Below are positions 9,147 through 30,371 of a stretch of 39,788 nt of DNA, one piece after another. Under the pieces are notes generated by a model that was not told where the DNA came from, ran no database searches, and was given only the letters and a program-made list of their open reading frames with translations. The position numbers and the translations under genes are program-made. The stretch's first letter is position 1; every line of letters begins with the position of its first letter. The stretch lies in the IMG/VR virus record IMGVR_UViG_3300036825_000021, positions 1 to 39,788 of that record; one strand, written 5' to 3'. The stretch comes from a virus. Taxonomy: Duplodnaviria > Caudoviricetes.

Positions 9147-9157
9147 GTACTTTACCC

Positions 9158-9499: not shown

Positions 9500-9510
9500 T
9501 CGGATTCCTC

Positions 9511-13192: not shown

Positions 13193-13196
13193 GATC

Positions 13197-13658: not shown

Positions 13659-13666
13659 ATAAATCC

Positions 13667-14445: not shown

Positions 14446-14447
14446 AA

Positions 14448-14774
14448 CTACATCAACTCCAGTTCCGTGGAAAACACACTACCATCTGGATTCTGTGGTC
14501 GAATAGCGCTGAAGATAGGACGCTCAATCTCTCCGAACTTCACAAGCCCCTCGATAAGCTTCCCAGGGTTAATGTCACCTTTAATAATTACTTTGCCTGA
14601 TAGCGTCACCAGACGTCGCTCCTTGTCCAGCTTTTGACGCATCTTTTCATCATGACAACAAAGCCCATCGAAGATTAATTCCTCGATAGGCTCTCCATTC
14701 TCGCTAGTGTAGGTCAGATAGACCTTAACAGGCGTTTTCAATATCCAATGTGGAAACGGGAACTTACCTCGCAT
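14448..14774 (-). CDS. Head closure / head-tail adaptor
   Basis: RBS AGGAGG and TGATG overlap; C-terminal NPDGSVFSTELEL. Confidence 0.7.
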   Translation of the reverse strand: MRGKFPFPHWILKTPVKVYLTYTSENGEPIEELIFDGLCCHDEKMRQKLDKERRLVTLSGKVIIKGDINPGKLIEGLVKFGEIERPIFSAIRPQNPDGSVFSTELELM

Positions 14775-15139
14775 CAACATAACCTCCTACTCGTCAGCCC
14801 TGTGGAGGCTAACAGGCTTGTCACGCCTTCTGTGGTCTGTATGCCCCCCGCTCCCTCCACCGCCTTAAAAGACAGCGACACACTGCCAGCGGAGTAGCCA
14901 GAGAGAGGGAAGTTAAGATAATCCCCATACTGAAAGGTGAAGTCTGCCTGCTGGCACGTTGCCTTTATAACATTAACCTGTTGAAATGGCGTGAGGCTTG
15001 TTAGACCTCGCCCCACAATGCGGTTGTAGGTAAGGGCATCCACTTGATCAGATGCCCTCTCCAGCGCCCTCTCCAGTTCTTCAGGTGTTATCTGCCCATC
15101 ACCATAGCGTTCATAATCCTCTACCGTTGCATAGGCCAT
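14774..15139 (-). CDS. Head-tail connector protein
   Basis: MAYATVEDY...LERASDQVDALTYNRI...IKATCQQA. Confidence 0.8.
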   Translation of the reverse strand: MAYATVEDYERYGDGQITPEELERALERASDQVDALTYNRIVGRGLTSLTPFQQVNVIKATCQQADFTFQYGDYLNFPLSGYSAGSVSLSFKAVEGAGGIQTTEGVTSLLASTGLTSRRLC

Positions 15140-15147
15140 GAGATCAC

Positions 15148-15477
15148 CTACTTCTCAGCTTTAACAGGCTTCTTTACGTCTGCCAGTTGCCCCTTCAGCG
15201 TCTCGATTTCCTTTAGCGCATCGTCAAGTTGCTGTTGAAGACCTGCCAGTGCTCCTGGAGAGCCAGATCCCGAAGCAGCTACTTGCTTTTTAAGTTCAGC
15301 ATTCTCCCGTATTACAGCCTCATGATCCTTGTAGGATACTGTTTTACCTGGAGCGTTTTCCACCACCTCAAGCTTGTCACCTTCCTGAGTGGCGATATCA
15401 TAGCCCAACTTCAAGTAGGTTCCCCGCTCCGCGTCGTCGATCTGGAGCTGTTTATTCCCTTTCACTGCAAATAGCAT
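15148..15477 (-). CDS. Hypothetical head-associated protein with coiled coil
   Basis: RBS GAAAGGAG before ATG 15477. Confidence 0.7.
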   Translation of the reverse strand: MLFAVKGNKQLQIDDAERGTYLKLGYDIATQEGDKLEVVENAPGKTVSYKDHEAVIRENAELKKQVAASGSGSPGALAGLQQQLDDALKEIETLKGQLADVKKPVKAEK

Positions 15478-15511
15478 AGTTTTATTCTCCTTTCGGCTAC
15501 AGGCCGGTATA

Positions 15512-16387
15512 TTATTCCTCTGCGTTGATCTGAATGCCATCTGCCTTGCGGTTAATCAAGAACAGATCCGTATAACGGCGATTTTGATACAGATATCCAT
15601 CGCCACCTGTGTGACTACCAGGTTCCCACAGGTAAATAGCACTGTGTTTAATTGGAGCAATTACTGCCTGTGGGTGGATAAGGATCATATTGATCTGTTT
15701 TGCCCCCACACCAGGCACAGCCCCGTTCGTAAAGTTGAAGGCACTCTTCATCCGACTAGATGGCACTTTAACCAGGGTCACGTCATCAAGGCTTCTTACC
15801 GCACGGTCAATGGCTCCGTTGTTCGCTTGGACATTAATAACTCGCTTCATGTCCTCCGCTTGCTTCAGCAGCGTATGCACAGTAGGAGTCACGTACATAA
15901 TTCGGCCTTCTTCGGGTACCTCTGCCTCATCCATATTTTGCATGAGCTTATCGAAGACTTGCAGCGCATTAGCAACCGACAACACCGTAACGTCAGGTGT
16001 TTTGCCCAAGGCTACATAATCCGCATAGAGCTTGCTATAACGGTATTTATCCAACTCTGGAATTGCCTGCTCCGTTTCAAACACGTTTGTCGTATTGGCT
16101 GCAGACAGGATCTGATTAGTTTCATCAACGTCCATAGCATCCACATAGAACTCAACGTCACGGTCAAACGCCAGCACCTTCGTTTCAAAATCATTGCTGA
16201 TCGCCTGACGGTTCCATCCACCTGAACGGCTGTGGTCCTTGTAACCCCCAACGTCCAAACGCGGGATCTTAATTGTTTTAGATCCAATAAAAATGGCGTT
16301 CTGTGTGGTCAATCCAGAAGAAGTTAACTCCTTCGTATATTTTTGATGCAGCACTGTCAGAAAACTATCTACGTAGTTATAAGGCAT
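15512..16387 (-). CDS. Major capsid protein
   Basis: Follows the scaffold gene; TIKIP, DAMDVDET and PELDKYRYSKL motifs. Confidence 0.9.
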   Translation of the reverse strand: MPYNYVDSFLTVLHQKYTKELTSSGLTTQNAIFIGSKTIKIPRLDVGGYKDHSRSGGWNRQAISNDFETKVLAFDRDVEFYVDAMDVDETNQILSAANTTNVFETEQAIPELDKYRYSKLYADYVALGKTPDVTVLSVANALQVFDKLMQNMDEAEVPEEGRIMYVTPTVHTLLKQAEDMKRVINVQANNGAIDRAVRSLDDVTLVKVPSSRMKSAFNFTNGAVPGVGAKQINMILIHPQAVIAPIKHSAIYLWEPGSHTGGDGYLYQNRRYTDLFLINRKADGIQINAEE

Positions 16388-16422
16388 TTTTACATCTCTC
16401 CTCTTTAATTATTAGCTATTTG

Positions 16423-17016
16423 TTATTTGGTGTCTGCAACACCGAAGATATTGGCCAATTGTTCATTGGAAGCCGCTCCAGCTCCACCTTGACCGCCTCC
16501 ACCACCTATACGGAAGCCTCCTTGCCCACCGTTTCCACCACCAGTGTCCTCTGGCTTGAATAGGTAGGCGTCTGAGGTCTGCAAGCCCTTGAGCTGCTCA
16601 TCTAGGCCAACCACTCTCCCATCATCCCCGATCACCAGCTTGTCTTTCTTGATCAAGCCAGTAACAACAGCCTCATTGTGGACTTTGCCATTCAGTGCGG
16701 CTGTAATGGCGTTCGTTAACGTCATGTCTTTTAAATCAGCAGCGTACTTTTCTGCGGCAGTCTTGTTCTCACCCTGCAGCTTAGCGATCTCGGCTTTCAG
16801 CGTCTCAGAAGCACCCGCGTCTTTACTGAGCGTTTCAAGCTGCGCATCACGGTCTGTAATGTCCTTCTCCAGCTTCTTCTTGGTGTCGGACAGATCGTTA
16901 TACTGTGACTTAGGAACAAAATGCTTTGGCAGCTCCTTGTTCACGTCACCAATCAGACCGTCAATCTTTGATTCATCAAAGCCAGCATCTTTTAACAACT
17001 TTTTTAACCATTCCAT
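16423..17016 (-). CDS. Capsid scaffolding protein (GP20 family)
   Basis: FVPKSQYN, a coiled coil and GLDEQLKGLQTSDAYLF. Confidence 0.9.
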   Translation of the reverse strand: MEWLKKLLKDAGFDESKIDGLIGDVNKELPKHFVPKSQYNDLSDTKKKLEKDITDRDAQLETLSKDAGASETLKAEIAKLQGENKTAAEKYAADLKDMTLTNAITAALNGKVHNEAVVTGLIKKDKLVIGDDGRVVGLDEQLKGLQTSDAYLFKPEDTGGGNGGQGGFRIGGGGGQGGAGAASNEQLANIFGVADTK

Positions 17017-17126
17017 TTATGATCAGCCTCCATAGATTTGTATAGCTGCTCTCCAGCTAAGGGATTGGGCCGTGATGCTCCGGCCAACGAGCAAATAGGC
17101 CACAACAGTCTCAATCGTGGCCATGA

Positions 17127-17210
17127 TTATCGCTTCTTGCTACTTCCAATTCCAAAAATAATGATTAGTGTCAGGCAAATAATAAAAGTAATCATAACGC
17201 TATCAGACAA
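17127..17210 (-). CDS. Small hydrophobic peptide, 27 aa
   Basis: RBS GAAAGGCGGTG, TTG start; MSDSVMITFIICLTLIIIFGIGSSKKR. Confidence 0.55.
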   Translation of the reverse strand: MSDSVMITFIICLTLIIIFGIGSSKKR

Positions 17211-17235
17211 GGGTAGTCACCGCCTTTCAGGCATG

Positions 17236-17266
17236 AAAAAAGCACCCTCGCAAATGCGTGAGTGCC
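17236..17266 (-). terminator. Terminator after the immunity gene
   Basis: GCACTCACGCA-TTT-GCGAGGGTGC followed by TTTTTT. Confidence 0.65.
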
Positions 17267-17268
17267 TG

Positions 17269-17580
17269 TCAATCGAGAGCGTCAATCGCCCATTGTATGT
17301 CCATTTCCATGTCTATGTCAGGATACTTATGTTGTAGTTCGCGCAACAGATCAATAAATTCCTGGCTCTGTAGCCGTTCAGAAACATCCTCGAAGTAGCC
17401 ACCCATCCTATTAACTTCAGTGGGCGTACACTTCAACAACAATTCTTTTGTTGTATCAAAGTCCTGACTTAGCACCTCAACAATCTCACCCCAATATTCA
17501 TCCAGAGGCGGAGATGCTCCGTTTTGAGTCATCATATCAATGATCTGCAAATTTGTTGTAATTATTTCGTTGCCAGTCAC
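17269..17580 (-). CDS. Putative immunity protein for the MuF toxin
   Basis: Small, acidic and helical; GTGA overlap with the toxin stop codon. Confidence 0.7.
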   Translation of the reverse strand: MTGNEIITTNLQIIDMMTQNGASPPLDEYWGEIVEVLSQDFDTTKELLLKCTPTEVNRMGGYFEDVSERLQSQEFIDLLRELQHKYPDIDMEMDIQWAIDALD

Positions 17581-19205
17581 TTTTCTTCATCTCCTACCAG
17601 CCTCTGCGTTTCATCAGGGAATATTGTTGTAATGCCCTTCCTTTGGGTATCATACACAACCCCGACAGTCACGCTACGATAGTTTGCATATTTGAATATT
17701 GAAATGAGCTCACCATTAACCTTTTTCGGCTCCAATTGAAACTGATCTGGATCTTGAAGGTTTGCCACATACATACCAGCTTTCTCAATGTCCTCTGCGG
17801 TCCAACTCTTCGGAAACCAGGATTGTTTTGTGCCCGATTTCTTCAACTTGTCCTTATGCGAAGGCACATTACCAATGCGCACGCCGTTTTTATACTCTTT
17901 AACGACATTATACTCGATTCCATGCCCTATCAAAAGCTGAATGTTCTCTTCCCCATGTCCGCCCTTGCTAAAATTACCTATTGCCTGCTTTTTCGGATTC
18001 TTAGGGTTTGTAAATTCACCTTTAGATGCATGCTTGATCGCTTCAGGCTGCATTTCTAACGGCTTGTTCTTATTATGCAAACCGTTATCAGGTATTTTCT
18101 GAACGGGAATCTTAAATTTCTCACGGCTATAATCTCGGCGCAGGTGCTCATTTGCCTTAACATGCTCCCTAAGCTTACCTTGCCACTCCTTCACCTTAGC
18201 CGCAGCTGCAGCCTGGTTAATTGGATCAACACTGCCTGACTCTCGGCGCTTGTACTTGCGGATCTGGCGCTCCATATAGCGTTGCTTCTGCTCTGCCTTA
18301 TAGTTGGCTAGTGCCTCCGCATCATTCACAGGCTCAGGAAGTCGGCTTTTACCAGGAATGAAGGTTGTCATGTTATGGCGGCAGTTTGGATGAAACAGCC
18401 CTGCTGCCATTGCCTTACTCAGTAGTGGGTAGGGACCGTCAGAAGCTTTACCGCCACTATACACATCATCGATGTATACTTTACCTTGCCATGGCAAACA
18501 CAGCTCAGAACAGTTACTGTGAGCGGACACCACAACAAATGGATTACGCTGTTGTTTGCGTTTAGCTCCCTCTCCCTCGAACACTGCTCTCTGGGAGGAT
18601 GCACGCAGAGCCATTTCAGCATAAGAGGCTATATTCATTCTTCGACCATTAGCAAACTGTATACAGTCAAAACCTTTATCAAGAAAATCACCTGTGGCCA
18701 TGTCAATAGCTTGGTTAAGTGAAGCAGCACCGGAGTTAAGATAAACCTGAGATTTGAATATTGTTTGCCGAAATATATCATCTGCTTGTCTAAGCACAGC
18801 AAAACGTGCAGCTTTCATCTCTCCTTGTGCAGCTGATGTCAAGGCGTTAACTCGCTTTTCATTAAGCTTGAAAAAGTTTTCATCAGAAACGCCTTCAACA
18901 TCCAGCTTATCTGGGATAATCTTACCCAACAGCTTTTTAGCTGCTCGTTTAATCCCATCTAGGAAACCACCCTTGACCTCTCGCTCGATTGCTATATTAA
19001 CCACAGGCTCAGTCTTCTTAACAATCTGAGTAGCCTCTTGCTTGTACTGCTTAAGATCCAGCAGCTTCTTCTCCTGCCATTGATCCCACTCGAAACCCTC
19101 TTTCTTCTCCTCATTCTCATGACGGGTCAGATTCCGCTTCATGGAGGCTATCAGGTCAATCTCCATCTGAGCAAAGATGCCTCGAATGTCATATTTCTTC
19201 TTCAT
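17577..19205 (-). CDS. MuF/minor capsid protein with C-terminal EndoU-type RNase toxin domain
   Basis: CSELCLPWQG and FHPNCRH MuF motifs. The C-terminal part has the bacterial EndoU pattern H..xG, GGHG, NGVR.G, SWFPKSW, ITTIFP. Confidence 0.85.
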   Translation of the reverse strand: MKKKYDIRGIFAQMEIDLIASMKRNLTRHENEEKKEGFEWDQWQEKKLLDLKQYKQEATQIVKKTEPVVNIAIEREVKGGFLDGIKRAAKKLLGKIIPDKLDVEGVSDENFFKLNEKRVNALTSAAQGEMKAARFAVLRQADDIFRQTIFKSQVYLNSGAASLNQAIDMATGDFLDKGFDCIQFANGRRMNIASYAEMALRASSQRAVFEGEGAKRKQQRNPFVVVSAHSNCSELCLPWQGKVYIDDVYSGGKASDGPYPLLSKAMAAGLFHPNCRHNMTTFIPGKSRLPEPVNDAEALANYKAEQKQRYMERQIRKYKRRESGSVDPINQAAAAAKVKEWQGKLREHVKANEHLRRDYSREKFKIPVQKIPDNGLHNKNKPLEMQPEAIKHASKGEFTNPKNPKKQAIGNFSKGGHGEENIQLLIGHGIEYNVVKEYKNGVRIGNVPSHKDKLKKSGTKQSWFPKSWTAEDIEKAGMYVANLQDPDQFQLEPKKVNGELISIFKYANYRSVTVGVVYDTQRKGITTIFPDETQRLVGDEEK

Positions 19206-20713
19206 TCGTCATCATCTTCAGTCGGAGCCGCATCTTCCAGATCATCAGGTGGAGCGTCTCGGTTAATACCTGTATCTTCAACCTCCAAAAAACCTTGCTC
19301 TTTCTTCAACAGTTCTACCTCAGCAGCCTTTTCTTCATCGGTCCAGGTGTCACCATACATCTCCTCGACGGCTCGCTCGATACTCATCACACCGAATGTG
19401 CGGGCTTTGCCAACCGTCTCCACAACAGCATCAAAGGAAGGAGAAGCATACTCCCCGAAGGTTACGCTGGCCTCATACTCACCTGCAGTACGATTTTGCA
19501 TCGTGTCATATACCTTCATGACGGTCTGCACCAACTCAGGGATGACTTCATTCAGCCGATCCACGATCTTGCCACGAGTGTACAACGTGGCCTTCTCCTT
19601 CTCCCGCTGAGCCTCTGCGTTATCGGTCTTTTTAAGATCGATCCCTAGAGTAGATGGACTAATAATGCCCTGTAAACACATATCCAAAGCGCTGCTATAG
19701 CTGGCCACAAATGCCTCATAGAGTATCTGAGGTTGCACCATGTCCATCTGCCCCTTGGAGTCCTCTGCAAGACCTGTGTTCAGCTTGATAAATTGATTAT
19801 CAAATGGATTAGATCGCATAAGTTCGCCCGTTTCGGGGTTTATGGGAACCAGATCCTGCGGAATGTATTTCTGCACGCGACCAGCACGAATGGCATCTAC
19901 CCACTGACTGATCACCTCATCAAGCGCGTCGAAAGAATCAGCCTTACTGTCAAAAATGCTCTTTCCACGCCCTGGCCACTTGGTGGACTTAAACACCATA
20001 AGCGGCACAGCCATGATAAAGTCACCGTCATATTCAATGTCCTTCAAGTCTGCTATTTCAGGGACCAGGGACAACGGTACTTGCTTACCATTAGCATCCA
20101 GCAACTGGTAACGAATGTACTTACGGCCAAATGTCTCTATGAGCCGATAATCCTTACTGTCAACCGTGTAATCGGAATAGAAAAGAACTTCCTGTAATCG
20201 TCCTCGGGTACGCTTAAACTCCACCTGATCACCATTGTAGAATTCAATTAGTGGATATCCACTGACATTCTGGTCTACTGTGATCTTAAAGGCACCGTCT
20301 CCAGCTGTTAGCGCCTCTGTTACGGCACCACTCAGTAATTCAGGGAAATCGTTGTCCTCACTTATAGCTTCCCATGTATCCGTCTCGGCTTGCTGTTTAA
20401 GCGTAATGGCATCCATGTCGGAAACCACAATATCAGACAACCGATCTGCTACCATGGCCGGCAGCCCGCTGTGGATCTTCCGGATACCCAGGCCATTACT
20501 TGGAACAGCTGCCCAGAAGCGTGATTTCCCCACGCTATCCGTCATCGACTGCTTATAGAATTGATCCAGCTCGGATGGATCTCCACGATACCAAAGTCGA
20601 TTCCTCAGCACATTGGTACGGTAGCTAAATGGCTCCGTGATCGTGATGACCTGGCTTTCCGGTGCCGGGTTGATCCTCAGTATTTTCATAACCATGCTCT
20701 TAAACCACCCCAC
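19202..20713 (-). CDS. Portal protein (A118/SPP1 type)
   Basis: Position after TerL; GIISPSTLG and VTFGEY motifs; acidic tail. Confidence 0.88.
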   Translation of the reverse strand: MGWFKSMVMKILRINPAPESQVITITEPFSYRTNVLRNRLWYRGDPSELDQFYKQSMTDSVGKSRFWAAVPSNGLGIRKIHSGLPAMVADRLSDIVVSDMDAITLKQQAETDTWEAISEDNDFPELLSGAVTEALTAGDGAFKITVDQNVSGYPLIEFYNGDQVEFKRTRGRLQEVLFYSDYTVDSKDYRLIETFGRKYIRYQLLDANGKQVPLSLVPEIADLKDIEYDGDFIMAVPLMVFKSTKWPGRGKSIFDSKADSFDALDEVISQWVDAIRAGRVQKYIPQDLVPINPETGELMRSNPFDNQFIKLNTGLAEDSKGQMDMVQPQILYEAFVASYSSALDMCLQGIISPSTLGIDLKKTDNAEAQREKEKATLYTRGKIVDRLNEVIPELVQTVMKVYDTMQNRTAGEYEASVTFGEYASPSFDAVVETVGKARTFGVMSIERAVEEMYGDTWTDEEKAAEVELLKKEQGFLEVEDTGINRDAPPDDLEDAAPTEDDDE

Positions 20714-20716
20714 TTT

Positions 20717-22057
20717 CTACACCCCCAGTCTCTTCTTGAATGGCTGCACGCTGTACTCGCTACTATCCAAACAGTCAACCGGATAGCTGCCGTCATCGGT
20801 TCTCACCCATTCACCCTCTATGCGCTTCTTCTCGTCCCAGGTGGCGTTTTCCAACGCCTCTTGCCACTCTTTCAGATGGCTCATGACCTTGTAGCGGCCC
20901 TGATTGATAAGGATACTGGTAAGTCGGATCCGGTCCACGATGCCCTCTTTCTTGTATGACGGTGTCACTGTGATGAAGATCTTCCGGCGCTGTAGCTCAT
21001 TGAGAAGTGCCTGACGGAACAGCTTATCCGCAGATTCCGCGAAGATATGAGCACACGCAAAAAAAGCAGGGTACGTATTACCCCACTCCTCAATCTTATC
21101 GACTATTTCCTTGGCGTAACGGTCATGCGTGTAGCCTGTTGACTTACCTTGCTTGTGATAGTAACCATCCAGGAGCACAACCTCTTTATGCTGTGGCGTG
21201 AATCCTGTCAGAGTGGCTACCGTAGCATCTGTACCACCTATATCTATCCCGATGCTGAATTCAATGAACCGCTCATCCTGGATAGCAGCTCGGGCAATGA
21301 TTACGTCCTTGACAGTATAGCCGGTATATATCCGACCTGTGGCTGCTGTACGCATTCCCTTGATATCAGCCTTATACCATAGGCTGTCCTTGTCATACGT
21401 AGCAAGAACCATACGTAGCTGTTCATCTGAGATTGACAGGTTATCAAAAACGGTGAAGTGTCCGTAATTGTACCCTGGGTTACGGCCTGCTTTCTTCTCC
21501 TTATCCTGAAAGTCCAGGAAATCCCGATAGAACCAATGTGCCGGCGGCTTCGGGTTAAGATCAAAGAAGAGTTGCCGTTTGCTACTAGCGACTGTACGGT
21601 CAATTGCCTCCTGCACAAAGCTCTGATGGCACTCATTGACCTCAGTGATGTACACCGTGCCGTAGGAGTTACCCTTGATCCGCGCTGCGTCATTGGCCTT
21701 ACCACCACCTGCGATAATAACAACCTTCTCACCGGTCTTTGTCTGAATATACAGTGCATCCCGGTTCTTATACTCCCCTTCGCGGCAACGACCTGCAAAC
21801 AGCCACTGAAGCCCGAATCCGTTGGAGTCTATTGCGTTCATCTTGGCGGCGGCTAAGCTCACCCCTGCCACCAGATGCAGCTTATCGGGGTGCACCTCCA
21901 GGCACATTGCATATGCGATTAGGTTAATGATGTTCTTTCCTGCCCGTTTACCACCTTCTGCCACGTTTAGCCAGCTGTCACGGCTTGCAGCAATATAATT
22001 GCTCTGCTTGGCAGTAAGCGGTGCATACGGGATCATTACAGCCTCACTCATCGTCAA
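20717..22057 (-). CDS. terL: Terminase large subunit
   Basis: EGGKRAGK Walker A, YITE Walker B, DLNP, and the GIDIGG nuclease motif. Confidence 0.93.
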   Translation of the reverse strand: MTMSEAVMIPYAPLTAKQSNYIAASRDSWLNVAEGGKRAGKNIINLIAYAMCLEVHPDKLHLVAGVSLAAAKMNAIDSNGFGLQWLFAGRCREGEYKNRDALYIQTKTGEKVVIIAGGGKANDAARIKGNSYGTVYITEVNECHQSFVQEAIDRTVASSKRQLFFDLNPKPPAHWFYRDFLDFQDKEKKAGRNPGYNYGHFTVFDNLSISDEQLRMVLATYDKDSLWYKADIKGMRTAATGRIYTGYTVKDVIIARAAIQDERFIEFSIGIDIGGTDATVATLTGFTPQHKEVVLLDGYYHKQGKSTGYTHDRYAKEIVDKIEEWGNTYPAFFACAHIFAESADKLFRQALLNELQRRKIFITVTPSYKKEGIVDRIRLTSILINQGRYKVMSHLKEWQEALENATWDEKKRIEGEWVRTDDGSYPVDCLDSSEYSVQPFKKRLGV

Positions 22058-22766
22058 TCACCCGCTCAGCTACGGGATTGTTAATCAAATCCGCCAGAGC
22101 TGTGATCTGCGCGTTCGGATCATCGCCGTCTTTATTTGGCACCTTAGACTTCAGCACGTCGATACGAGCTTTCTGTTCCTCCGTTGCCAGATCCGTCTTC
22201 AGCAGCTCATCATACTGCTTGATCATACCCTGGAGCGTTGTCATTGCCCGGCTCTGAGCCGTAAGGAAGGACGCCTGCTTATCCCAAGCCTGCTGCACTT
22301 CCCATTTTTGGCCTGACACATTGCCGTCCTTTTCCTCGATCAGCGTGGTCGTGCTGTCATCCCGATCTTTGACGTACATGATCTGCTGAGCCCTGATGAT
22401 GGCGGTGTACTGGATCATGATGTTGTCCCACAGAATATCCAGAGGAGCTCGGTTCTGCAGTTGCTCCATGATGGCCAGCGACTCTGCCGGCAGATACTTA
22501 GCGAACAGTCCATGCTTCTCGGCGTTCTTGTTTCGCTTCGGTGCGGATCCGCCCTTATTGCCAACAGCGTTTTGATTACCCGGTGGTGCACCTCCACGGT
22601 TAGGGTGCGCCCTTTCAGCTTTGGGTGCACCCATATCCCGATTCCAGCCGTGACGCTTCTTCCATGACTTCACCGTGTTAATGGAGACGGCATATTTTTC
22701 AGCAATTGCTTTATATTTCATGCCGGACACATAATCCTGCTCGGCTAATTTAGAAGTTTCAGCCAT
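22044..22766 (-). CDS. terS: Terminase small subunit (PBSX XtmA-like)
   Basis: N-terminal HTH NTVKSWKKRHGW; GAPPGNQNA and NKNAEKHG motifs. Confidence 0.9.
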   Translation of the reverse strand: MAETSKLAEQDYVSGMKYKAIAEKYAVSINTVKSWKKRHGWNRDMGAPKAERAHPNRGGAPPGNQNAVGNKGGSAPKRNKNAEKHGLFAKYLPAESLAIMEQLQNRAPLDILWDNIMIQYTAIIRAQQIMYVKDRDDSTTTLIEEKDGNVSGQKWEVQQAWDKQASFLTAQSRAMTTLQGMIKQYDELLKTDLATEEQKARIDVLKSKVPNKDGDDPNAQITALADLINNPVAERVIDDE

Positions 22767-22805
22767 ATTACATTTTCACCACCCCCGCCGTTATGTTTGT
22801 TTCGT
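22737..22805. repeat. 69-bp imperfect direct repeat, copy 1 (terS start and leader)
   Basis: 56/69 identical to 23560-23628. Confidence 0.9.
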
Positions 22806-22874
22806 ATGGCCACTCAGAAAGCCCAACCTTCTTATGTTTGGTCTTAATTATTTTATGGACGAGACTAAAAACAC

Positions 22875-22905
22875 AAAAAAGCCCAACCTAAAAAAAGATT
22901 GGACT
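22875..22905 (-). terminator. Minus-strand terminator (probable end of the antisense RNA)
   Basis: AGTCCAATCT-loop-AGGTTGGGCT followed by TTTTT. Confidence 0.65.
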
Positions 22906-22915
22906 AATCGCAATA

Positions 22916-22949
22916 GATACTTTACAGATGTAAAGTATCGTGTTATAAT
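22916..22949 (+). promoter_or_regulatory. SigA promoter TTTACA-17-TATAAT (extended TG) overlapped by a perfect operator palindrome
   Basis: GATACTTTACA-GA-TGTAAAGTATC at 22916-22939. Confidence 0.85.
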
Positions 22950-22975
22950 TAATATATCAAGAGGAGGTGATAATA

Positions 22976-23092
22976 ATGAAGAAACGAAGAGAAAGACGGA
23001 AAGAGGATAGAGAGTCAACCTTCAAGATGGTGACTGCAATCATCACCTTGATAAACTCCATCCTCACCCTCATCATCCTGCTGCTCAAGTAG
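22976..23092 (+). CDS. Small membrane peptide C, 38 aa (type I toxin-like)
   Basis: RBS GAGGAGGTG; MKKRRERRKEDRESTFKMVTAIITLINSILTLIILLLK. Confidence 0.8.
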   Translation: MKKRRERRKEDRESTFKMVTAIITLINSILTLIILLLK

Positions 23093-23163
23093 GAAAACCC
23101 GAAACCTTGGCCCCGAAAGGGGCTAAGGCATAGGGGATGAAAATCAAGGGCCGTCTTTCCTTC

Positions 23164-23192
23164 AGTATATCACACTCATAAGGAGCGATGAA
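23164..23192 (-). promoter_or_regulatory. Antisense promoter (TTCATC-17-TATACT, extended TG) facing peptide C
   Basis: Reverse complement of AGTATATCAC; same relative position as 1409-1437. Confidence 0.6.
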
Positions 23193-23194
23193 GC

Positions 23195-23287
23195 ATGACA
23201 CGCAAAGCAAGAGCTACAGAGTTAATGACTTATGCCGCGCTTGTAATCAGTATCGCCAATACCGTTATATTGCTGGTGAAGTGGTAA
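23195..23287 (+). CDS. Small membrane peptide D, 30 aa
   Basis: RBS AAGGAG; MTRKARATELMTYAALVISIANTVILLVKW; TAATG coupling to the HTH gene. Confidence 0.75.
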   Translation: MTRKARATELMTYAALVISIANTVILLVKW

Positions 23288-23529
23288 TGTACACATTCAA
23301 CAGCAAAGAAGAACTAGCTGAGTGGATCGCACGCGAAATCTGCGGCGTCTCGGAAGCTATGGAGATATTGGAGTCTACACGGCAGAACATTCACGGATTC
23401 GTAAAAAACGGTAAGCTCAAACCGGTTAAAGAAACCAAAAATGAACGTCTCTTCTTCCGTTCTGATCTTATAGAGCGTAAGGAAGCAGCTAAGGCGTATC
23501 ACACTAAGAAGGACAAGTCCGGTGAATAA
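23287..23529 (+). CDS. MerR/HTH_17-like DNA-binding protein, 80 aa
   Basis: GVSEAMEILESTRQNIHGFVKNGKLKP...RLFFRSDL; start taken at the TAATG overlap. Confidence 0.85.
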   Translation: MYTFNSKEELAEWIAREICGVSEAMEILESTRQNIHGFVKNGKLKPVKETKNERLFFRSDLIERKEAAKAYHTKKDKSGE

Positions 23530-23545
23530 GCCGGACTTTCTTTTT
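23515..23545 (+). terminator. Intrinsic terminator closing the cassette
   Basis: AAGTCCGG-TGAATAAG-CCGGACTT followed by TCTTTTT. Confidence 0.8.
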
Positions 23546-23559
23546 GTGATTCCTTTTGA

Positions 23560-23628
23560 CTGTTCAGCTAGTTTTGATGTTTCAGCCATCCTGCATTTTC
23601 ACCATCGCCGGTGTTGTGTTTGTTTCGT
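23560..23628 (-). pseudogene. Second copy of the terS leader and first 10 codons (MAETSKLAEQ)
   Basis: Direct repeat of 22737-22805; all 5 coding mismatches are synonymous. Confidence 0.85.
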
Positions 23629-23754
23629 TAAATCTCCTAAAATAATTAATTTTTCTTTCAATTACTAGCATCTGGATTTAATATTGTATTAATTTGTATA
23701 GACTTTAACACACTAAATAATTTAAAATATGTCAGAAATCAGGAGGAGATAAAT

Positions 23755-24888
23755 TTGGAAGATAACAGTTCACAGAATAATAATTTAAACATTAACGAAT
23801 CTACAGGCTCGGAATCACCGCTGCCTGAGCCTCCACCGGATATATATGAACCTTTAGTAAGAGAAAATGATTCCCTTCCGTCACAAAAGTTGATACATAA
23901 ATCTGCTAACTGCAAGATATTTCAATATAGAAAGACAGGGTTATTAAGTTTCAAGTGGTCTCCCAATGCACCACCTGAACAGATTAACCTCATTAGCCAG
24001 GCCAACTTCCTTCAAAGCAGAGTGAAAGTAGAAATAATGAAGTCATACCAGAGAGAGTGTTATAATGTCATTAAAAATGCACTCCTAGCCTCCCTAATGA
24101 TCTATCAAGCTGGAGAATATGAAGAGCATTTTGACTATGCCGCTGATTATATAGATCATAAAAAGGAAGAACAAAAAAAATTACACATTTTACATTCAAA
24201 CCAGTATTATGAAATATTTTTAGGTAATAATCAAAAAACAATTAATGTATGGATGCATAACCAGTTGCGAGAAAGGAAACGTGCTGAGATAGATGAATTT
24301 AGAAGGCTTAAAACAATAATTAATATCTTTCTAACAGGAAAGCAAAAAGAATTGGCCCTTAGACAGTTAGGTACAGCTCTATCTTCTGCTTTTCACAATA
24401 CAGATAACAACTCAGCAATGGAAAAATTCAAAAGCATAGAGACATTTACTTATTCTAGAGCCACCTTATCTGCCAAAATTCATCATTTTGCAGCCACACT
24501 AATTTTGATTCTTATCGTTGTGGGTATTTCAATGTATTATTATCATTCTGTTAATGACGCTGAAATAAAGCATTTTATTATTGGATCTATTGCTGGAGTC
24601 ATTGGTTCATTTATTTCAATTACACAACGAAGTGATAAAATAGTGGTTGATTTTTCGGCTCCCGTTTCAATTTTCCTAATTCAAAGCTTTTCAAAATTAA
24701 TTTTAGGTTTATTTTTTGGTATCATCACTATACTACTGATAAAATCGAATATTATCGCTCTTTTATCTGAAGTCAATTCATACTCTATGGCAATTTTGTG
24801 CGTGGTAGCAGGTTTTAGTGAAAGATTTGTACCCGATCTTTTAGAGAAAATATCTAATAAATCGGGCCTCGATGAGACAAAACCATAA
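23755..24888 (+). CDS. AT-rich moron membrane protein, 377 aa (4 C-terminal TM helices)
   Basis: RBS AGGAGGAG, TTG start; opposite strand to the late operon; ends AGFSERFVPDLL. Confidence 0.85.
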   Translation: MEDNSSQNNNLNINESTGSESPLPEPPPDIYEPLVRENDSLPSQKLIHKSANCKIFQYRKTGLLSFKWSPNAPPEQINLISQANFLQSRVKVEIMKSYQRECYNVIKNALLASLMIYQAGEYEEHFDYAADYIDHKKEEQKKLHILHSNQYYEIFLGNNQKTINVWMHNQLRERKRAEIDEFRRLKTIINIFLTGKQKELALRQLGTALSSAFHNTDNNSAMEKFKSIETFTYSRATLSAKIHHFAATLILILIVVGISMYYYHSVNDAEIKHFIIGSIAGVIGSFISITQRSDKIVVDFSAPVSIFLIQSFSKLILGLFFGIITILLIKSNIIALLSEVNSYSMAILCVVAGFSERFVPDLLEKISNKSGLDETKP

Positions 24889-24897
24889 AAAATCTAC

Positions 24898-24927
24898 AAA
24901 AAGAGCCCTTCAATATGGAGGGCTCTT
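24898..24927. terminator. Bidirectional hairpin terminator
   Basis: AAGAGCCCT-TCAATATGG-AGGGCTCTT; U tract on the minus strand. Confidence 0.7.
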
Positions 24928-24937
24928 GATAGACAGA

Positions 24938-24986
24938 AATATAGTGGGTAGGTTGTGCGACACTGTGTGCGACAGTACGTGCGACA
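24938..24986 (-). promoter_or_regulatory. Putative late promoter: 3 x TGTCGCAC at 12-bp period plus -10 TATATT
   Basis: Repeats at 24955-24962, 24967-24974 and 24979-24986, right after the late activator stop codon. Confidence 0.65.
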
Positions 24987-24990
24987 AGAC

Positions 24991-25470
24991 CTATAGAAAG
25001 TCTTGTTTAATCTTGCATTTCGCTCGATCTACGTACATACGTACGGTGTTTTTTGATAGATTCAGCTTACTCGAAATCTCTAACAGCGTCAAGCCCTGCG
25101 CCATGTGAAGTAAGAAACATGTACGTTCTCGATCACTCAGCGACAACAGCGCATCCACCAGCTTTAACCGTTCAGCCTCTCCCATTTGTTGTCCTGATAG
25201 TTTGATATAAATCTCACGTTGCCTGTACACATCCGTAATCTCAGCACCTCTGCGGCTCCCTGGGCGGCGTCCTCTCCGCATCCAGGTTAAGGCATACCTC
25301 ATGTCTGCCAGCATCCCTGATACAGTATCAGCCTCTTCTGCCGCTGTCGGATCCTTGAGATCCAAGGTGTCTCGGTAACGCTCCAGGTTGTGGACATCTG
25401 TGGCATACTGACAGATTAGGGTTTCGATCCAAGTTGCCTTTGTGGTTGTCTTCATGATGTCTGACCCCAT
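24991..25470 (-). CDS. Late transcription activator, sigma-70 region 4 type (Xpf/ArpU-like)
   Basis: LSDRERTCFLLHMAQGLTLLEISSKLNLSKNTVRMYVDRAKCKI; last early gene. Confidence 0.85.
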   Translation of the reverse strand: MGSDIMKTTTKATWIETLICQYATDVHNLERYRDTLDLKDPTAAEEADTVSGMLADMRYALTWMRRGRRPGSRRGAEITDVYRQREIYIKLSGQQMGEAERLKLVDALLSLSDRERTCFLLHMAQGLTLLEISSKLNLSKNTVRMYVDRAKCKIKQDFL

Positions 25471-25477
25471 TTCTGTG

Positions 25478-26485
25478 TTATTCTCCGGATGCAGATAATA
25501 GTTTGATGATCTTTCGTGCTCGAGTCAGCTCGGCAATACTTCGGTCAAGCAGTTGCGTCTCGCTGGCAGGTTCAGCTGGCTCTACACGAACGTGAACACG
25601 AAGCAATTCACTCAGCCGATCATTCTCCGACATCAGTTCATCACGTTCTGAGATCATCCGGTTAATCTCATCCCGAAGCCGATCATTTTCCTCAGTGGTT
25701 TGAACAAGTTCATCCTCAGCTGTATGCCGTGCAGATGTCCCTTTTTGTAAATTTGCCTTCATCCGTTCAATTTTAGCTGTGGACTCCTCGGCAGCCTTAT
25801 CAGCTAGTTCCGCCGCTTCAGCAGCCCGAGCTTTCCAGTGCTTCACCTCACCGCGAAGTTTTATCAACTCGACCTCAGTAGAATCTAATCGGCGTTGCAG
25901 TACCCCCTTGACTTCATCCTTCGCTGTTACTTCAAGCGTTAGGCGCTCAATCTCCACCACGGCCTTGTTCAACTGTTCTAAATCCGTAGATGGTCGTTGC
26001 TCTGACGCAAGGACCTCCTTTTCGCGAAGCAGTTGGGTTTTGTCAGGTTCAGTAGAATAGCCTGAAGTTTCGCCAAGCTGCGCAAGCATCTCTTTGGCTT
26101 TATCAGGTGTAACTCCTCGACAGTCCCAGTTCTTAACCCAGTTGTACAGCGTGTTGTACTTCATCCCCCAAGCCTTCTCGATGCTTGAAACCGTCTCACC
26201 AGCTGCAATCTGCTCTAAGAATAATCTTTTAGTTAGCCCACAGCTAGGCCCCTCTTTGCTAGTCCGTTGTCCTCCCATATCCTTGTACTCCTCCTTATTT
26301 TGGTGTCTTTGATCTGTTCGTGGATTATGTGCTATTGGCTTTTTAAAGTTCTTGTCCGCTTTGGTCGCCGGATACTTCTGCCTGATCTCCTCAAGCTCTT
26401 CAGGAGACAAGGTATATTCACGCGGTTTACTGGTGCCTCTCGAGCTGTATTCAGCCACTCGACTTGGTATAGGTGTATTGGCCAT
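25478..26485 (-). CDS. Hypothetical HTH + coiled-coil protein
   Basis: RBS AAGGAGG; SSIEKAWGMKYNTLYNWVK; long heptad-repeat region. Confidence 0.75.
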   Translation of the reverse strand: MANTPIPSRVAEYSSRGTSKPREYTLSPEELEEIRQKYPATKADKNFKKPIAHNPRTDQRHQNKEEYKDMGGQRTSKEGPSCGLTKRLFLEQIAAGETVSSIEKAWGMKYNTLYNWVKNWDCRGVTPDKAKEMLAQLGETSGYSTEPDKTQLLREKEVLASEQRPSTDLEQLNKAVVEIERLTLEVTAKDEVKGVLQRRLDSTEVELIKLRGEVKHWKARAAEAAELADKAAEESTAKIERMKANLQKGTSARHTAEDELVQTTEENDRLRDEINRMISERDELMSENDRLSELLRVHVRVEPAEPASETQLLDRSIAELTRARKIIKLLSASGE

Positions 26486-26651
26486 CCCTAACCCTCCTTT
26501 TCATTGCGGAAGTCGTACCCCACTTACGCTGCCGTTTCCTTAGTGGTGCTTCTGGGAGGATCGTGTAAACCTCACCAACCACCGTACCGTTATCATCTGT
26601 GATAATGTCCCAGGGGATCTCCTGAAAGTAGGGATCAAATCCCATTAACAT
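26451..26651 (-). CDS. Hypothetical protein, 66 aa
   Basis: ORF track; RBS-like GAGAGGG; co-oriented with the early operon. Confidence 0.55.
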   Translation of the reverse strand: MLMGFDPYFQEIPWDIITDDNGTVVGEVYTILPEAPLRKRQRKWGTTSAMKRRVRDGQYTYTKSSG

Positions 26652-26675
26652 CAGCCCTCTCTATTAATCTTGCAA

Positions 26676-26705
26676 TTGACAAAAGACGAGGCGACATTGT
26701 ATGTT
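26676..26705 (+). promoter_or_regulatory. SigA promoter TTGACA-18-TATGTT
   Basis: Upstream of a structured leader and a peptide ORF. Confidence 0.55.
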
Positions 26706-26811
26706 TATACCAATCTTTTAAGCTAGAACAGGGTAAGTAAATTAGTTTTTACTGGATCTAGTCTGGGCAGCCGAAAGGCTTAATCCGCCCGGCTTAAGGG
26801 AGGGTTGACTC

Positions 26812-26907
26812 ATGACGATTAAAACCTCTTGGTTTGAAATCAGAGTGAGTGACCAAGTGGCGTTGGGCTTACTCACACTAATCACCACCGTCGCGAGCCT
26901 CCATTAG
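26812..26907 (+). CDS. 31-aa peptide, type I toxin-like
   Basis: RBS GGGAGG; MTIKTSWFEIRVSDQVALGLLTLITTVASLH. Confidence 0.6.
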   Translation: MTIKTSWFEIRVSDQVALGLLTLITTVASLH

Positions 26908-26919
26908 GAGGCTTTTTTT
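26896..26919 (+). terminator. Intrinsic terminator overlapping the peptide stop codon
   Basis: AGCCTCC-ATTA-GGAGGCT followed by TTTTTT. Confidence 0.8.
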
Positions 26920-27214
26920 ATAGCTCCAATTGTTGTCTGTAGCAATTCCGGTAGTGGTCCACCAGTCCTTGCGCTTTAAGCTTTGCAAACTTCACACGGC
27001 ATACATGCTCCGTCTTACCCAATGCAAAGGATAAGGCACGAGCATCATCAACACCGTAAAATGTACATAGGTATTCCAAATCCTCCTGACTGAACGGCTT
27101 GCCATGATTCGGATGAAAATCCGGATGAAACTCCATTCTACCGCTGCCATCATAAGTAATGCCGTCTAGGGCGTCATCCCTATGCGGTTGAAGATCTCCG
27201 TATACACGAGCCAT
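26918..27214 (-). CDS. Hypothetical phage protein (Myb/HTH-like)
   Basis: HPDFHPNHGKPFSQEDLEYL...LSFALGKTE. Confidence 0.75.
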   Translation of the reverse strand: MARVYGDLQPHRDDALDGITYDGSGRMEFHPDFHPNHGKPFSQEDLEYLCTFYGVDDARALSFALGKTEHVCRVKFAKLKAQGLVDHYRNCYRQQLEL

Positions 27215-27217
27215 AAA

Positions 27218-27442
27218 TTACATCCCCTTCTGCTGCTTCTCGTAGACTTCTTCCAGCCACTCCGTCAGCATAATCATTTGCTTTATCACCAGTGGGTTGT
27301 CCTGATATTTCTGACACATCGCCCCGGATGAATCAGCGACCCATTGCCAAAAATCAGGGCTCTGCATACCATACTGAGTAGCTGCGGCGTTGACTTGCTG
27401 CGTCCACTGATAGACATCCCAGAATAACGCCTTGTAGTCCAT
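27218..27442 (-). CDS. Hypothetical phage protein, 74 aa
   Basis: Tightly packed in the operon; RBS GAGGAG. Confidence 0.75.
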   Translation of the reverse strand: MDYKALFWDVYQWTQQVNAAATQYGMQSPDFWQWVADSSGAMCQKYQDNPLVIKQMIMLTEWLEEVYEKQQKGM

Positions 27443-27445
27443 CAG

Positions 27446-27841
27446 CTACAACTCCTCGATTTTGATATAGATACCTGGAAGCGCAGCCCAGAACTTCTCG
27501 ACGATCTCAGAAGCAACGAGAGCATCGTCTTTCCAGAATCCACAATCGGTCATACAATCCTTGAGTAGCTTCTGCAGGTTGTCTGTATCTGGCCTCGTGT
27601 ACTTGTACTCTCCGTCTTGATGTTTGCCAGTAATCGGGAAGCACCACTTCACCGTCAACCGAATAGCTACTGTATATTTTCTTGCCGGCACATGTTGCCC
27701 AAGGTGAGCCATTAATTTCGCCCGCGCTGCCTTCAGCTCATCGGGCTCATAGAATACTGGCTTACCATTCACAACTGCCACCTGTTTCTGCTGGTGCGTG
27801 ACAGTAGGCGGAGATTTCATTGGCATGAAGAATTCAGTCAT
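27446..27841 (-). CDS. rusA: RusA-family Holliday junction resolvase
   Basis: RPDTDNLQKLLKD...FWKDDALV; RBS AGGAGG before ATG 27841. Confidence 0.9.
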   Translation of the reverse strand: MTEFFMPMKSPPTVTHQQKQVAVVNGKPVFYEPDELKAARAKLMAHLGQHVPARKYTVAIRLTVKWCFPITGKHQDGEYKYTRPDTDNLQKLLKDCMTDCGFWKDDALVASEIVEKFWAALPGIYIKIEEL

Positions 27842-27909
27842 CGTTTTCGCCTCCTGTTGTGATACCATTTTTCAATTTTTTATTTCGCGGCGGGTTTCAA
27901 ATAAATTTA

Positions 27910-28124
27910 GGGGAAGGGGGAGGGGGATTTTTATACCCCCTCCCTTATTCCTTATATATTTATATAGTGGTCGCCGCCACAACTTGCGGCAATCATACAC
28001 GTATCAAATTCCCCGCAACTTTGTGCGGAATTGCGGCAATCATGTTTCGCAACTTGCGGCAATCATAAAATCATGATCATTGCAAGTTTTTGCGGTAACC
28101 ATAAAACCGTGATTTCCGCCGCAA
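27910..28124. repeat. Putative replication origin (iterons + GC-rich inverted repeat + AT tract)
   Basis: CAACTTGCGGCAATCAT at 27980-27996 and 28050-28066, with variants at 28029-28043 and 28090-28102. GGGAGGGGG...CCCCCTCCC hairpin. Confidence 0.7.
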
Positions 28125-30371
28125 TTACTCATCTTCTTTTTTGATTATCCGGAACCCATTGGAGCGATCAATTTCATACCCAAACTTCTTAATCCAATCT
28201 CTCACAGTGCGCTCGGCTACCTCTTTACCAGTAGAGGAATACCACGCTATGACATCCAATACTGTAGGTGGTTCACCGAAATTACAGTTGTTCACAACTT
28301 CCTCAAATTCCTCTGCTTTACTCCGTCGCTGCTCTTTCGCCTTATCCTGACGCTTGCCTGTTGCTTTCTGCCAAGGTGGCTTTGAAGATTCCCCATCTGG
28401 ATCGATGTCCTTCAGGCTTCCTACATCGTCCACTTTATGGATCGGATACTGGAACCACATGTTAACTGGTTCAAACTTCGGATACTCCCGTAGCGTGCCT
28501 TCTACCCTCCAAGCTGAGCGGATACGAACACTCTTGACAGCCTGCTTGACGCCCTCCTGAGCGATTGCCAATTGACTAGGAATCGCACGTTTGGCGTGAT
28601 CTTCCATCTGTTTGGCACTAAGCAAGTCATCCTGGGAAACATGTTCCTGTAAGTAGCTTGGATTGTACTTCTCAAAGAGCTGCTGATACATAGCACAGAC
28701 AGCCTTATTCTCCTCTTGCATCAATAACGCTTCTGTCAGATCTAACTCTACTAAATCGATAAGCGCGTCTGGATCACGGGCAAATACGCCACTGCCTGAA
28801 GCTCTGTCCATCGACTTCTTACCGCCCTGCGAACCTTTGCTGTGATGATGACAGTAAATTACGCCTGCACCCAGTTCTGTTGCTATCTTGTCAAACTGAT
28901 TTGTAAAGTGAGCCATCTGATCCGCGCTATTTTCATCACCGGTTAACACCTTGTAAATAGGGTCAATGATAACAGCGATATAGTTCTTCTTAGCTGCACG
29001 CCGGATCAGTTTCGGGGCCAATTTATCCATAGGTACTGTCTTTCCACGCAAGTTCCAAATATCGATATTGCCGATATTTTTAGGCGACAACCCTAGCGCG
29101 TTATATACATTTTTGAAACGATCCAAGGCGCTAGCTCGATCAAGCTCCAGATTGACATACAGAACCTTGCCCTTCGTACATTGCCATGCCAGCCACTTAA
29201 TACCTTCAGCTATGGCTATGCTGAGTTCAATCAAGGCAAATGACTTACCTGCCTTTGACGGTCCTGCCATGAGCATCTTATGTCCCTGTCGTAGCATTCC
29301 TTCTATTAAAGGCGGTGCCAGCGGCGGCATATTGTCCCAATAGTCCGCTAGGCTTTCCGGATCCGGAAGATCGTCATTAATACCTTCAATCCATTCATGC
29401 CATTCAGCCCAGCTCGCTTTACCAATGCTTGTATCCACAATGAACTGCTTCTTCTCATTACGCTCGATCCCAGGCATACGTGATAGCCGGGAAGGATTGC
29501 GGTTCTGATTGTCAACGGACAAGCCGTTCTTCTTGCAGACGGTGTAGAGGTAATCCACGCGTTTCCGGTACTCATCGTAGTTGGCTGCCTCTACCTTGAC
29601 GATGGCATGTAGGCTTTTACCTCCGCTGTATACTAGCACCGCGATCGGCAGCTCTAGCTCACGCATAACCGCATTTTGCTTTTCAATGTCCATTGTGTCG
29701 GATTCCACCAGGGCATACCGAAATTCAGTCACATTCTCATTCTTGACGCCCTTACCATCCAGTGGGTTGAACCGAATCCAAGCACCAGCTGCTGGATCGT
29801 AGTCACCAATAACAGAGCCGATATCACCACCACATTGATTAAGCAGTTGGATTAATTCGCCGGCTGTGCGATCCGATGCCCCTTTCGTTGGCAAATACTT
29901 GCCTTCATCGTTTTGCCAGGTATCTGTGACGTATCCAACATTCTCGGAAGCTTCAAACAAAGCGCTTAAATACGTTGTTAGTTGCTGTACTGGATTCCAA
30001 TCAGCCGGCTCGTGGATCTCTTTACCTTCTATCCAATTCTTATCGATAACAACGTAATCGCCGCCGGCAATTTCATCGTCCCAATCCAGTTCCCGATCAT
30101 TTGCAGACCGTGGCAGCCATCCGTTATCCTTGGCCAACTGCGTAATGGTCGCGCCGGTGACTGGGTTACCGGTTCCTTCGAATGTCGTCCACTTCTTGAA
30201 GCACTCACCTGGATGGTAGCGCCCACCGTCCCGCCGGCTCCACTCGTCCCAGTCGCTGGCCGTGTAACCTTCATATTTTAGTGCCATGCCGACATTGACC
30301 CATTCCTGGTAATTCAAAAAGGATGGATCGATGTAGGCCAACAATGCTATGAGGTCAAGTTTGTGTTCCAT
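28125..30371 (-). CDS. Primase-helicase (PriCT-2 + primase + RepA-type AAA helicase)
   Basis: YQEWVNVGMALK, YSGGKSLHA, GPSKAGKS and IIDP motifs; RBS GAGGGAG before ATG 30371. Confidence 0.9.
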   Translation of the reverse strand: MEHKLDLIALLAYIDPSFLNYQEWVNVGMALKYEGYTASDWDEWSRRDGGRYHPGECFKKWTTFEGTGNPVTGATITQLAKDNGWLPRSANDRELDWDDEIAGGDYVVIDKNWIEGKEIHEPADWNPVQQLTTYLSALFEASENVGYVTDTWQNDEGKYLPTKGASDRTAGELIQLLNQCGGDIGSVIGDYDPAAGAWIRFNPLDGKGVKNENVTEFRYALVESDTMDIEKQNAVMRELELPIAVLVYSGGKSLHAIVKVEAANYDEYRKRVDYLYTVCKKNGLSVDNQNRNPSRLSRMPGIERNEKKQFIVDTSIGKASWAEWHEWIEGINDDLPDPESLADYWDNMPPLAPPLIEGMLRQGHKMLMAGPSKAGKSFALIELSIAIAEGIKWLAWQCTKGKVLYVNLELDRASALDRFKNVYNALGLSPKNIGNIDIWNLRGKTVPMDKLAPKLIRRAAKKNYIAVIIDPIYKVLTGDENSADQMAHFTNQFDKIATELGAGVIYCHHHSKGSQGGKKSMDRASGSGVFARDPDALIDLVELDLTEALLMQEENKAVCAMYQQLFEKYNPSYLQEHVSQDDLLSAKQMEDHAKRAIPSQLAIAQEGVKQAVKSVRIRSAWRVEGTLREYPKFEPVNMWFQYPIHKVDDVGSLKDIDPDGESSKPPWQKATGKRQDKAKEQRRSKAEEFEEVVNNCNFGEPPTVLDVIAWYSSTGKEVAERTVRDWIKKFGYEIDRSNGFRIIKKEDE

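Follow-up and report, generated by a model that had tools for sequence, protein, structure and literature searches.

Type I toxin-antitoxin systems such as hok/Sok and aapA/IsoA keep their mRNA closed by folding it back on itself, and activate it by processing at the 3' end. Autoregulated type II and tripartite toxin-antitoxin operons combine a small DNA-binding protein with a palindrome in the operon promoter. To our knowledge, control of type I systems lies with RNA and global regulators, and no repressor of their own is known for them.

The closest described counterpart of the locus presented here is yonT/SR6/yoyJ of the Bacillus subtilis prophage SPbeta, an established type I system. It has a sigma-A promoter, a very strong ribosome binding site (RBS), a first membrane peptide with a hairpin right behind its stop codon, an antisense promoter with an extended -10 box between the two genes, and a second membrane peptide on the same mRNA. 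The present locus has all of these, and it too lies in a prophage. According to the available part of PMC5848175, SR6 occurs in forms of 100 and 215 nt, the longer of which reaches towards the sense promoter, yonT decay depends on RNase III, and there is a yonT processing product of 217 nt. The same part reports YoyJ as a weak toxin, and not as an antidote; its overexpression impaired transformation. For yonT/SR6/yoyJ, the available part of the review PMC6562991 gives neither a fold-back nor an own repressor. Its section 2.4 makes a general statement on fold-back type I systems, and for Gram-positives gives local RBS sequestration and other strategies only.

The window analysed here is one virus record of 39,788 bases (IMGVR_UViG_3300036825_000021), and all positions are counted from its first base. 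By gene content it reads as a complete temperate siphophage, with an integrase, an ImmA/ImmR-like pair, replication, terminase and tail genes. Its closest relatives among named genomes are Paenibacillus, which makes it a Paenibacillus-type prophage. On the plus strand, directly upstream of the terminase small subunit gene terS and opposed to the late genes, it carries a cassette of two small membrane peptides, C and D, and a helix-turn-helix (HTH) protein. We lean towards reading this cassette, from its sequence and that of its relatives, as a conserved three-gene prophage accessory unit that would act as a toxin-antitoxin module of type I, extended by a second membrane peptide and a repressor of its own. 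The anatomy, the conservation, a covarying helix and the match between operator type and regulator type are established by computation.

The operon starts at a sigma-A-type promoter, TTTACA-17-TATAAT (22921-22949, plus strand), with 11 of 12 consensus matches. A promoter scan of 21000-25500 ranks it best of 16 consensus sites. Over its -35 box lies a palindrome with perfect 11-bp arms (22916-22939), the sole perfect one in the 39.8-kb window with arms of at least 11 and a loop of 0-8; its conserved core at 22921-22934 is the predicted operator of the HTH protein. A strong RBS (AGGAGGTGA, 22962-22970) precedes the 38-aa peptide C (22976-23092), the predicted toxin, which has a basic N-terminus and a C-terminal hydrophobic helix. 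After the stop codon of C comes a GC-rich GAAA hairpin of 10 bp with one G-U pair (23105-23128), with no U run behind it on the sense strand. The 30-aa peptide D (23195-23287), the predicted partner of C, is a single hydrophobic helix. TAATG joins it to the 80-aa HTH_17 protein (23287-23529), which is MerR/excisionase-like and a predicted autorepressor. The sense operon ends in a terminator (23515-23548) whose hairpin scores on both strands.

On the minus strand, the antisense promoter TTCATC-17-TATACT (23164-23192), with the extended -10 box TGnTATACT, overlaps the RBS of D. A hairpin with a U run, resembling an intrinsic terminator (22875-22905), is the predicted 3' end of the transcript. 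Promoter and terminator together predict an antisense RNA of ~280 nt (22875-23157), which would span the sense promoter and C with its RBS. Folding of the leader is much stronger than that of shuffled sequences, with z scores of -6.4 (sense) and -7.0 (antisense).

Much of this had been picked out by an initial annotation made from the letters of the DNA. The sense promoter, peptide C with its basic start and membrane segment, the GAAA hairpin, the TAATG coupling of D to an HTH_17 protein, both terminators and the antisense promoter were all found where it had put them, and the two short complementarities it listed exist as well. Its palindrome is also present, but only the window and its closest relative, L005, have perfect arms of 11 bp; conservation is limited to a 5+4+5 core.

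Two copies of a 69-nt direct repeat, 81% identical and with a spacing of 823, bracket the cassette. The left copy (22737-22805) holds the true start of terS, on the minus strand, and the right one (23560-23628) a relic second terS start, from which a relic ORF of 91 aa runs antisense to the HTH gene. The terS start is thus duplicated on both flanks, and recombination between the copies would excise an 823-bp cassette. Just beyond, a low-GC gene on the plus strand (23755-24888) encodes a 377-aa membrane protein that Pfam, PHROG, NCBIfam and PADLOC all leave unassigned; it is a second moron beside the cassette. At five other loci (L003, L029, L031, L044, L051) the cassette again sits just upstream of genes which, from their sequence pattern, we take to be terminase-small-subunit-like or HNH-like. 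This repeated position suggests a preferred moron slot.

The window has further features of this kind. Cassette 1, at 902-1560, has the same core with a divergent HTH_26 gene and YonT-like topology: peptide A (1254-1370), a hairpin (1377-1403), an antisense -10 box, peptide B (1470-1556) and a predicted fold-back. Its promoter is flanked by an 11-bp inverted repeat. Near the left end, a perfect inverted repeat with 10-bp arms (640-665) lies in an untranslated leader beside a second long hairpin region, and is possibly another regulated small RNA or leader.

Searches anchored on the HTH protein, together with 6 annotated regions, gave 36 distinct places after removal of duplicates. Of these, 20 are intact C-D-HTH_17 cassettes, window included. 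The counts exclude loci whose C is broken (L001, L002, L035), loci where the HTH stands without a peptide pair (L010, L032, L047), and 10 distant loci whose peptides are of other types (L008, L009, L011, L016, L037-L042). A profile of C matched in 24 of 401 Paenibacillaceae genomes, at 27 places: 12 known cassettes, 12 new C-D cassettes with no HTH_17 within ~480 nt, 1 decayed (L080) and 2 unrelated (L082, L083). The comparisons below use 32 C-D cassettes, 20 with HTH_17 and 12 without, and since these share ancestry, the counts are not independent. All 32 keep the two ORFs, the hairpin and the antisense extended -10 box, which in 3 cases has one mismatch.

The HTH profile matches 9 of 116 genomes of the genus and 15 of 401 of the family, a patchy spread that is typical of a mobile element. 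The C profile matches only 1 of 401 genomes in a phylum-wide sample, so C is nearly confined to Paenibacillaceae, though the layout is found more widely. In phages and plasmids of Bacillus, in Desulfosporosinus and in Acetivibrio, the same HTH family stands behind peptide pairs whose topology is YonT-like, and one further Bacillota genome has an HTH-like gene after such a pair. Two loci (L006:700-1900 and L030:300-1750) hold tandem pairs of C-D-HTH cassettes, each cassette with its own promoter, terminators and diverged HTH. At L032:1700-2250, on the minus strand, an HTH_17 relative without peptides immediately adjoins one end of a CRISPR-like repeat array.

Peptide C has a hydrophobic stretch of 19 residues (best 19-residue hydropathy 2.60) as its predicted membrane helix, with a net charge of +5 before the helix and +1 after it. 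Its length, basic patch and full hydrophobic helix are kept in 16 aligned members. C has no Pfam, NCBIfam, PHROG or PADLOC assignment; C, D and the RNA gave no match above cut-off to curated toxin or defence families (Pfam, NCBIfam, PHROGs, PADLOC, and Rfam at gathering score), and the cassette gave none by blastn against annotated phages. The ESM Atlas returned only unnamed clusters at 0.90-0.91, with TisB at 0.76, below lead level. C would also escape the screen of Fozo et al., because that screen, in the part of the paper available, sought polar C-termini and isolated genes (PMC2887945).

The two peptides evolve differently. Over overlapping sets of 9 and 10 close cassettes, the hydrophobic part of C has pS 0.25 and pN 0.26 (45 pairs; pN/pS ~1), and that of D pS 0.66 and pN 0.18 (36 pairs; pN/pS 0.28). 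The latter values mark D as a selected peptide. The silent sites of C are constrained, as expected of RNA structure or antisense overlap, and mosaic histories of C and D could also lie behind their difference in pS.

An intact D stands beside all 24 intact copies of C found by the C profile. Conversely, three Paenibacillaceae loci (L001, L002, L035) keep D and the HTH with C broken or deleted, and the distant L038 has the same pattern of C loss. In L001, D lies directly behind the promoter, as both C and the antisense promoter are deleted. This pattern suggests that C is the dangerous member and D harmless alone, although HTH-anchored sampling is biased towards retained D, since D adjoins the HTH. 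The decayed cassettes thus fit the initial annotation, which had C as the probable toxin.

The -35 box of the antisense promoter, TTCATC, matches the consensus at 3 of 6 positions, which is why this promoter is absent from the consensus scan list. It carries the extended TG, and weak as its -35 is, its -10 is kept in relatives. Located by pattern in these related sequences, TGnTATA(A/C)T lies on the minus strand between the hairpin and the RBS of D in 20 of 20 HTH_17 cassettes. The extended -10 is likewise present in all 12 cassettes without HTH_17 (9 strict, 3 with one mismatch). A minus-strand terminator within 110 nt upstream of the -35 was found in 16 of the 20 HTH_17 cassettes, versus 0 of the 12 with a divergent regulator, where the divergent gene occupies the terminator's place. 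These patterns argue for the predicted antisense unit over C but not D, as had been proposed.

Since the antisense promoter contains the RBS of D, this RBS is upstream of the RNA start predicted at ~23157 and does not overlap the predicted RNA. A weak terminator-like site at 23117-23098 could end a short form of the RNA. Three RNA runs contained small shares of the stretch, in contigs that are ~93-95% alike. These cover 22978-23522 (X2) and 22978-23192 (X3), and nothing else of 9000-28900; they are not counted as support, being unstranded contigs of relatives that this stretch itself was used to find.

A long-range helix, CCGTCTTTC/GAAAGACGG, pairs early codons of C (22991-22999, nt 16-24 of C) with a downstream pyrimidine tract (23151-23159) beside the antisense -10. 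A Watson-Crick run of 9-17 bp is present in 20 of 20 HTH_17 cassettes, with sequences that differ between lineages, and in any of these 20 at most 4 of 200 shuffles equal the duplex energy. Over the 32 cassettes, the cognate duplex averages -23.1 kcal/mol versus -13.2 for non-cognate ones, which means that the tract changes in step with the codons of C. When all 32 partners are ranked, the cognate one is among the best 3 for 24 cassettes, and never below 5th. Opening the initiation window (-15 to +20) costs on average 13.5 kcal/mol with the tract versus 5.0 without it, and more with it in 31 of 32. The covariation supports this fold-back, one of the two pairings proposed earlier.

The other pairing, of ATCACCTTGATA with the RBS region, did not hold up. 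It lies outside the predicted fold, and this ATCACC-RBS helix was rejected as a conserved element, with 75% of cells paired and 0 compensatory changes. RNAalifold, on the 20-row alignment, gave only the RBS helix, without any two-sided change. It missed the long helix because the arms are out of register in the alignment; the helix was therefore tested per sequence.

Which strand pairs is a separate matter. Mismatches beside the -10 are mostly A-C on the sense strand, where A-C is richer than G-U. Because the core is pure Watson-Crick, it could be the antisense RNA, and not the mRNA, that forms the helix. The mRNA is favoured, because in distant loci the complementarity, as read by eye, overlaps the antisense promoter itself, a place at which pairing is open to the mRNA only. 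The C mRNA is predicted to occlude its own translation start, with either sense or antisense as the strand of the helix.

The 80-aa protein matches Pfam HTH_17 with E 1.5e-6 (28.8 bits, cut-off 27), and phrog_4691, 'excisionase', with E 1.4e-21. The excisionase label is unlikely to describe its role, because the gene is ~15 kb from the integrase, and its family stands behind two-peptide cassettes in phages and plasmids. The core TTKAC-N4-GTMAA lies over the -35 (score of at least 4/5) in 19 of 20 HTH_17 cassettes versus 0 of 12 without HTH_17. L001 and L047, where the HTH remains and C is missing, still have the core as well. That the predicted operator core travels with the HTH_17 gene is consistent with the autorepressor role suggested earlier.

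All 12 cassettes without HTH_17 have a divergent small gene instead. Nine are Pfam HTH_26 above cut-off; the 3 without a passing family are presumably ribbon-helix-helix-like. These cassettes carry other palindromes, for example CAACG-N5-CGTTG. In a tree of the DNA from C to the tract, the regulator type changes 6 times, with at least 4 changes forced by well-supported branches, and a single origin of the divergent type is rejected (p-AU 2e-55). In one genome, G294, two cassettes (L044 and L084) have near-identical cores, with different regulators and palindromes. The regulator is, by these comparisons, a swappable module that appears to be exchanged together with its predicted operator, which is new here.

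Put together, the proposed mechanism runs as follows. The strong promoter would produce a single C-D-HTH mRNA. Once transcribed, the tract at 23151-23159 would fold onto codons 6-8 of C and close its initiation, with the start of D outside the helix. The ~280-nt antisense RNA would pair with all of C and lead to RNase III decay there, sparing D and the HTH. The HTH protein, coupled to D, would bind TTKAC-N4-GTMAA over the -35 and so damp the operon. C would be freed, leading to membrane damage, by cleavage immediately behind the GAAA hairpin or when the antisense RNA disappears together with the prophage. D would most likely buffer leaked C in the membrane; this is the weakest step of the proposal. 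The role of the whole is probably maintenance of the prophage or cassette, and possibly also abortive defence.

Other explanations have to be weighed against this one. C and D might be non-toxic membrane morons, for example for superinfection exclusion or receptor modulation, with their dose set by the antisense RNA and the repressor. The position upstream of terS, against the direction of the late genes, would suit a moron, and so would a promoter and terminators of its own, the lack of a toxin family match for the peptides and the freely varying residues of C. This remains rather improbable, as the three silencing layers all aim at C only, decayed copies lose C before D, and a shown toxin, YonT, sits in the same layout. 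D might also be a second, weaker toxin or a co-toxin acting with C, and not an antidote, as proposed for YoyJ, whose overexpression impaired transformation (PMC5848175, in the part available). The helices of C and D show a weak resemblance (hhalign probability 64%), and every intact C is accompanied by D. A complex prediction for C with D scored 0.05, with the mark at 0.32, and speaks neither for nor against their binding. D has a good RBS and escapes both the antisense RNA and the fold-back, however, and in L001, where C and the antisense promoter are gone, it comes right after the promoter, which makes a toxic D unlikely.

Two further accounts deny that C or D is what it seems. If C were a leader peptide, its translation would open the fold and switch on D and the HTH, the antisense RNA would do the tuning, and nothing would be toxic. 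C is indeed constrained more at the RNA than at the protein level, and the predicted fold joins the start of C to the region just before the RBS of D. A leader would hardly be expected to keep its length, basic patch and hydrophobic helix, however; the hairpin has no U run on the sense strand, and 12 cassettes have no downstream regulator to switch, so that this account is very unlikely. Finally, the initial annotation had named as a refuting case that a 113-aa frame from 23188 is translated in place of D and the HTH, and D would then be a shadow ORF. In the window this frame is uninterrupted, and a GGAG stands a few bases before its ATG. Yet it has a start near that of D in just 3 of 23 loci, it is closed in L005, the closest relative, with an HTH that is 98% identical, and D is under purifying selection. 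The frame was rejected as a gene and has next to no chance of being one; the comparison supports D and the HTH as the translated pair.

The preferred reading, a type I module with its own repressor, matters in several ways. The near-identical natural cores with different regulators and operators make control by an own repressor directly testable. The cassette offers a testable explanation for the second peptide in yonT/SR6/yoyJ, and it bears on whether the 217-nt yonT RNA is the active form, shorn of its fold-back tract. Such cassettes have probably been overlooked in Bacillota phages and plasmids, because the peptides are too small for most annotation. The open literature gave no description of the regulator-bearing form; subscription papers were largely outside this search, and the candidate lists of Fozo et al. 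may include relatives. A far wider claim is tentative and rather doubtful: that this is a widespread new Bacillota toxin-antitoxin class, with a toxin held by antisense RNA, fold-back, peptide antidote and a plug-in repressor, the repressors being of three or more unrelated DNA-binding families with a separate operator for each. In such a class yonT/SR6/yoyJ would be a reduced member, with YoyJ a partner of YonT and not a second toxin.

Compared with fold-back type I systems that rely on 3' processing, the predicted scheme is the same in that a long mRNA is inactive while a downstream part is predicted to close the initiation region. It differs from hok/Sok and aapA/IsoA in a helix directed at early codons, a polycistronic mRNA and a Gram-positive host. 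With autoregulated type II and tripartite operons the cassette shares a small DNA-binding protein and a promoter palindrome, but it has a membrane peptide as predicted toxin and an RNA as predicted antitoxin, and its regulator is exchangeable.

The comparison with yonT/SR6/yoyJ goes furthest, although the initial annotation had missed that the layout is that of this known locus. A fold-back onto early yonT codons is predicted in this analysis too. The peptides differ: YonT is first hydrophobic and then basic, with charges of 0 and +17, whereas C is reversed, with +5 and +1; YoyJ has two helices and poor translation, whereas D, of 30 aa, has one helix and is preceded by a good RBS. By sequence, C does not resemble YonT, nor D YoyJ (hhalign probability 1.8% and 0.4%), and the first peptides of the distant set reach only 12.9% with YonT. 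SPbeta has yonU with its own promoter where this cassette has an HTH_17 gene and a predicted operator. SR6 overlaps the RBS of the second gene, while the RNA predicted here covers all of C and not the RBS of D. Of 7 distant cassettes, 5 have the start of peptide 2 at 23-24 nt from the antisense -10, with no Shine-Dalgarno sequence. In yoyJ (L059:11685-11936) the nearest equivalent start is a later ATG near 11742, outside SR6. The annotated 83-aa start of YoyJ, and the overlap of SR6 with the RBS, may need rechecking. Because the layout is shared and the peptides are dissimilar, the cassette is described as working like yonT/SR6/yoyJ, and is not filed as a member of that family by sequence.
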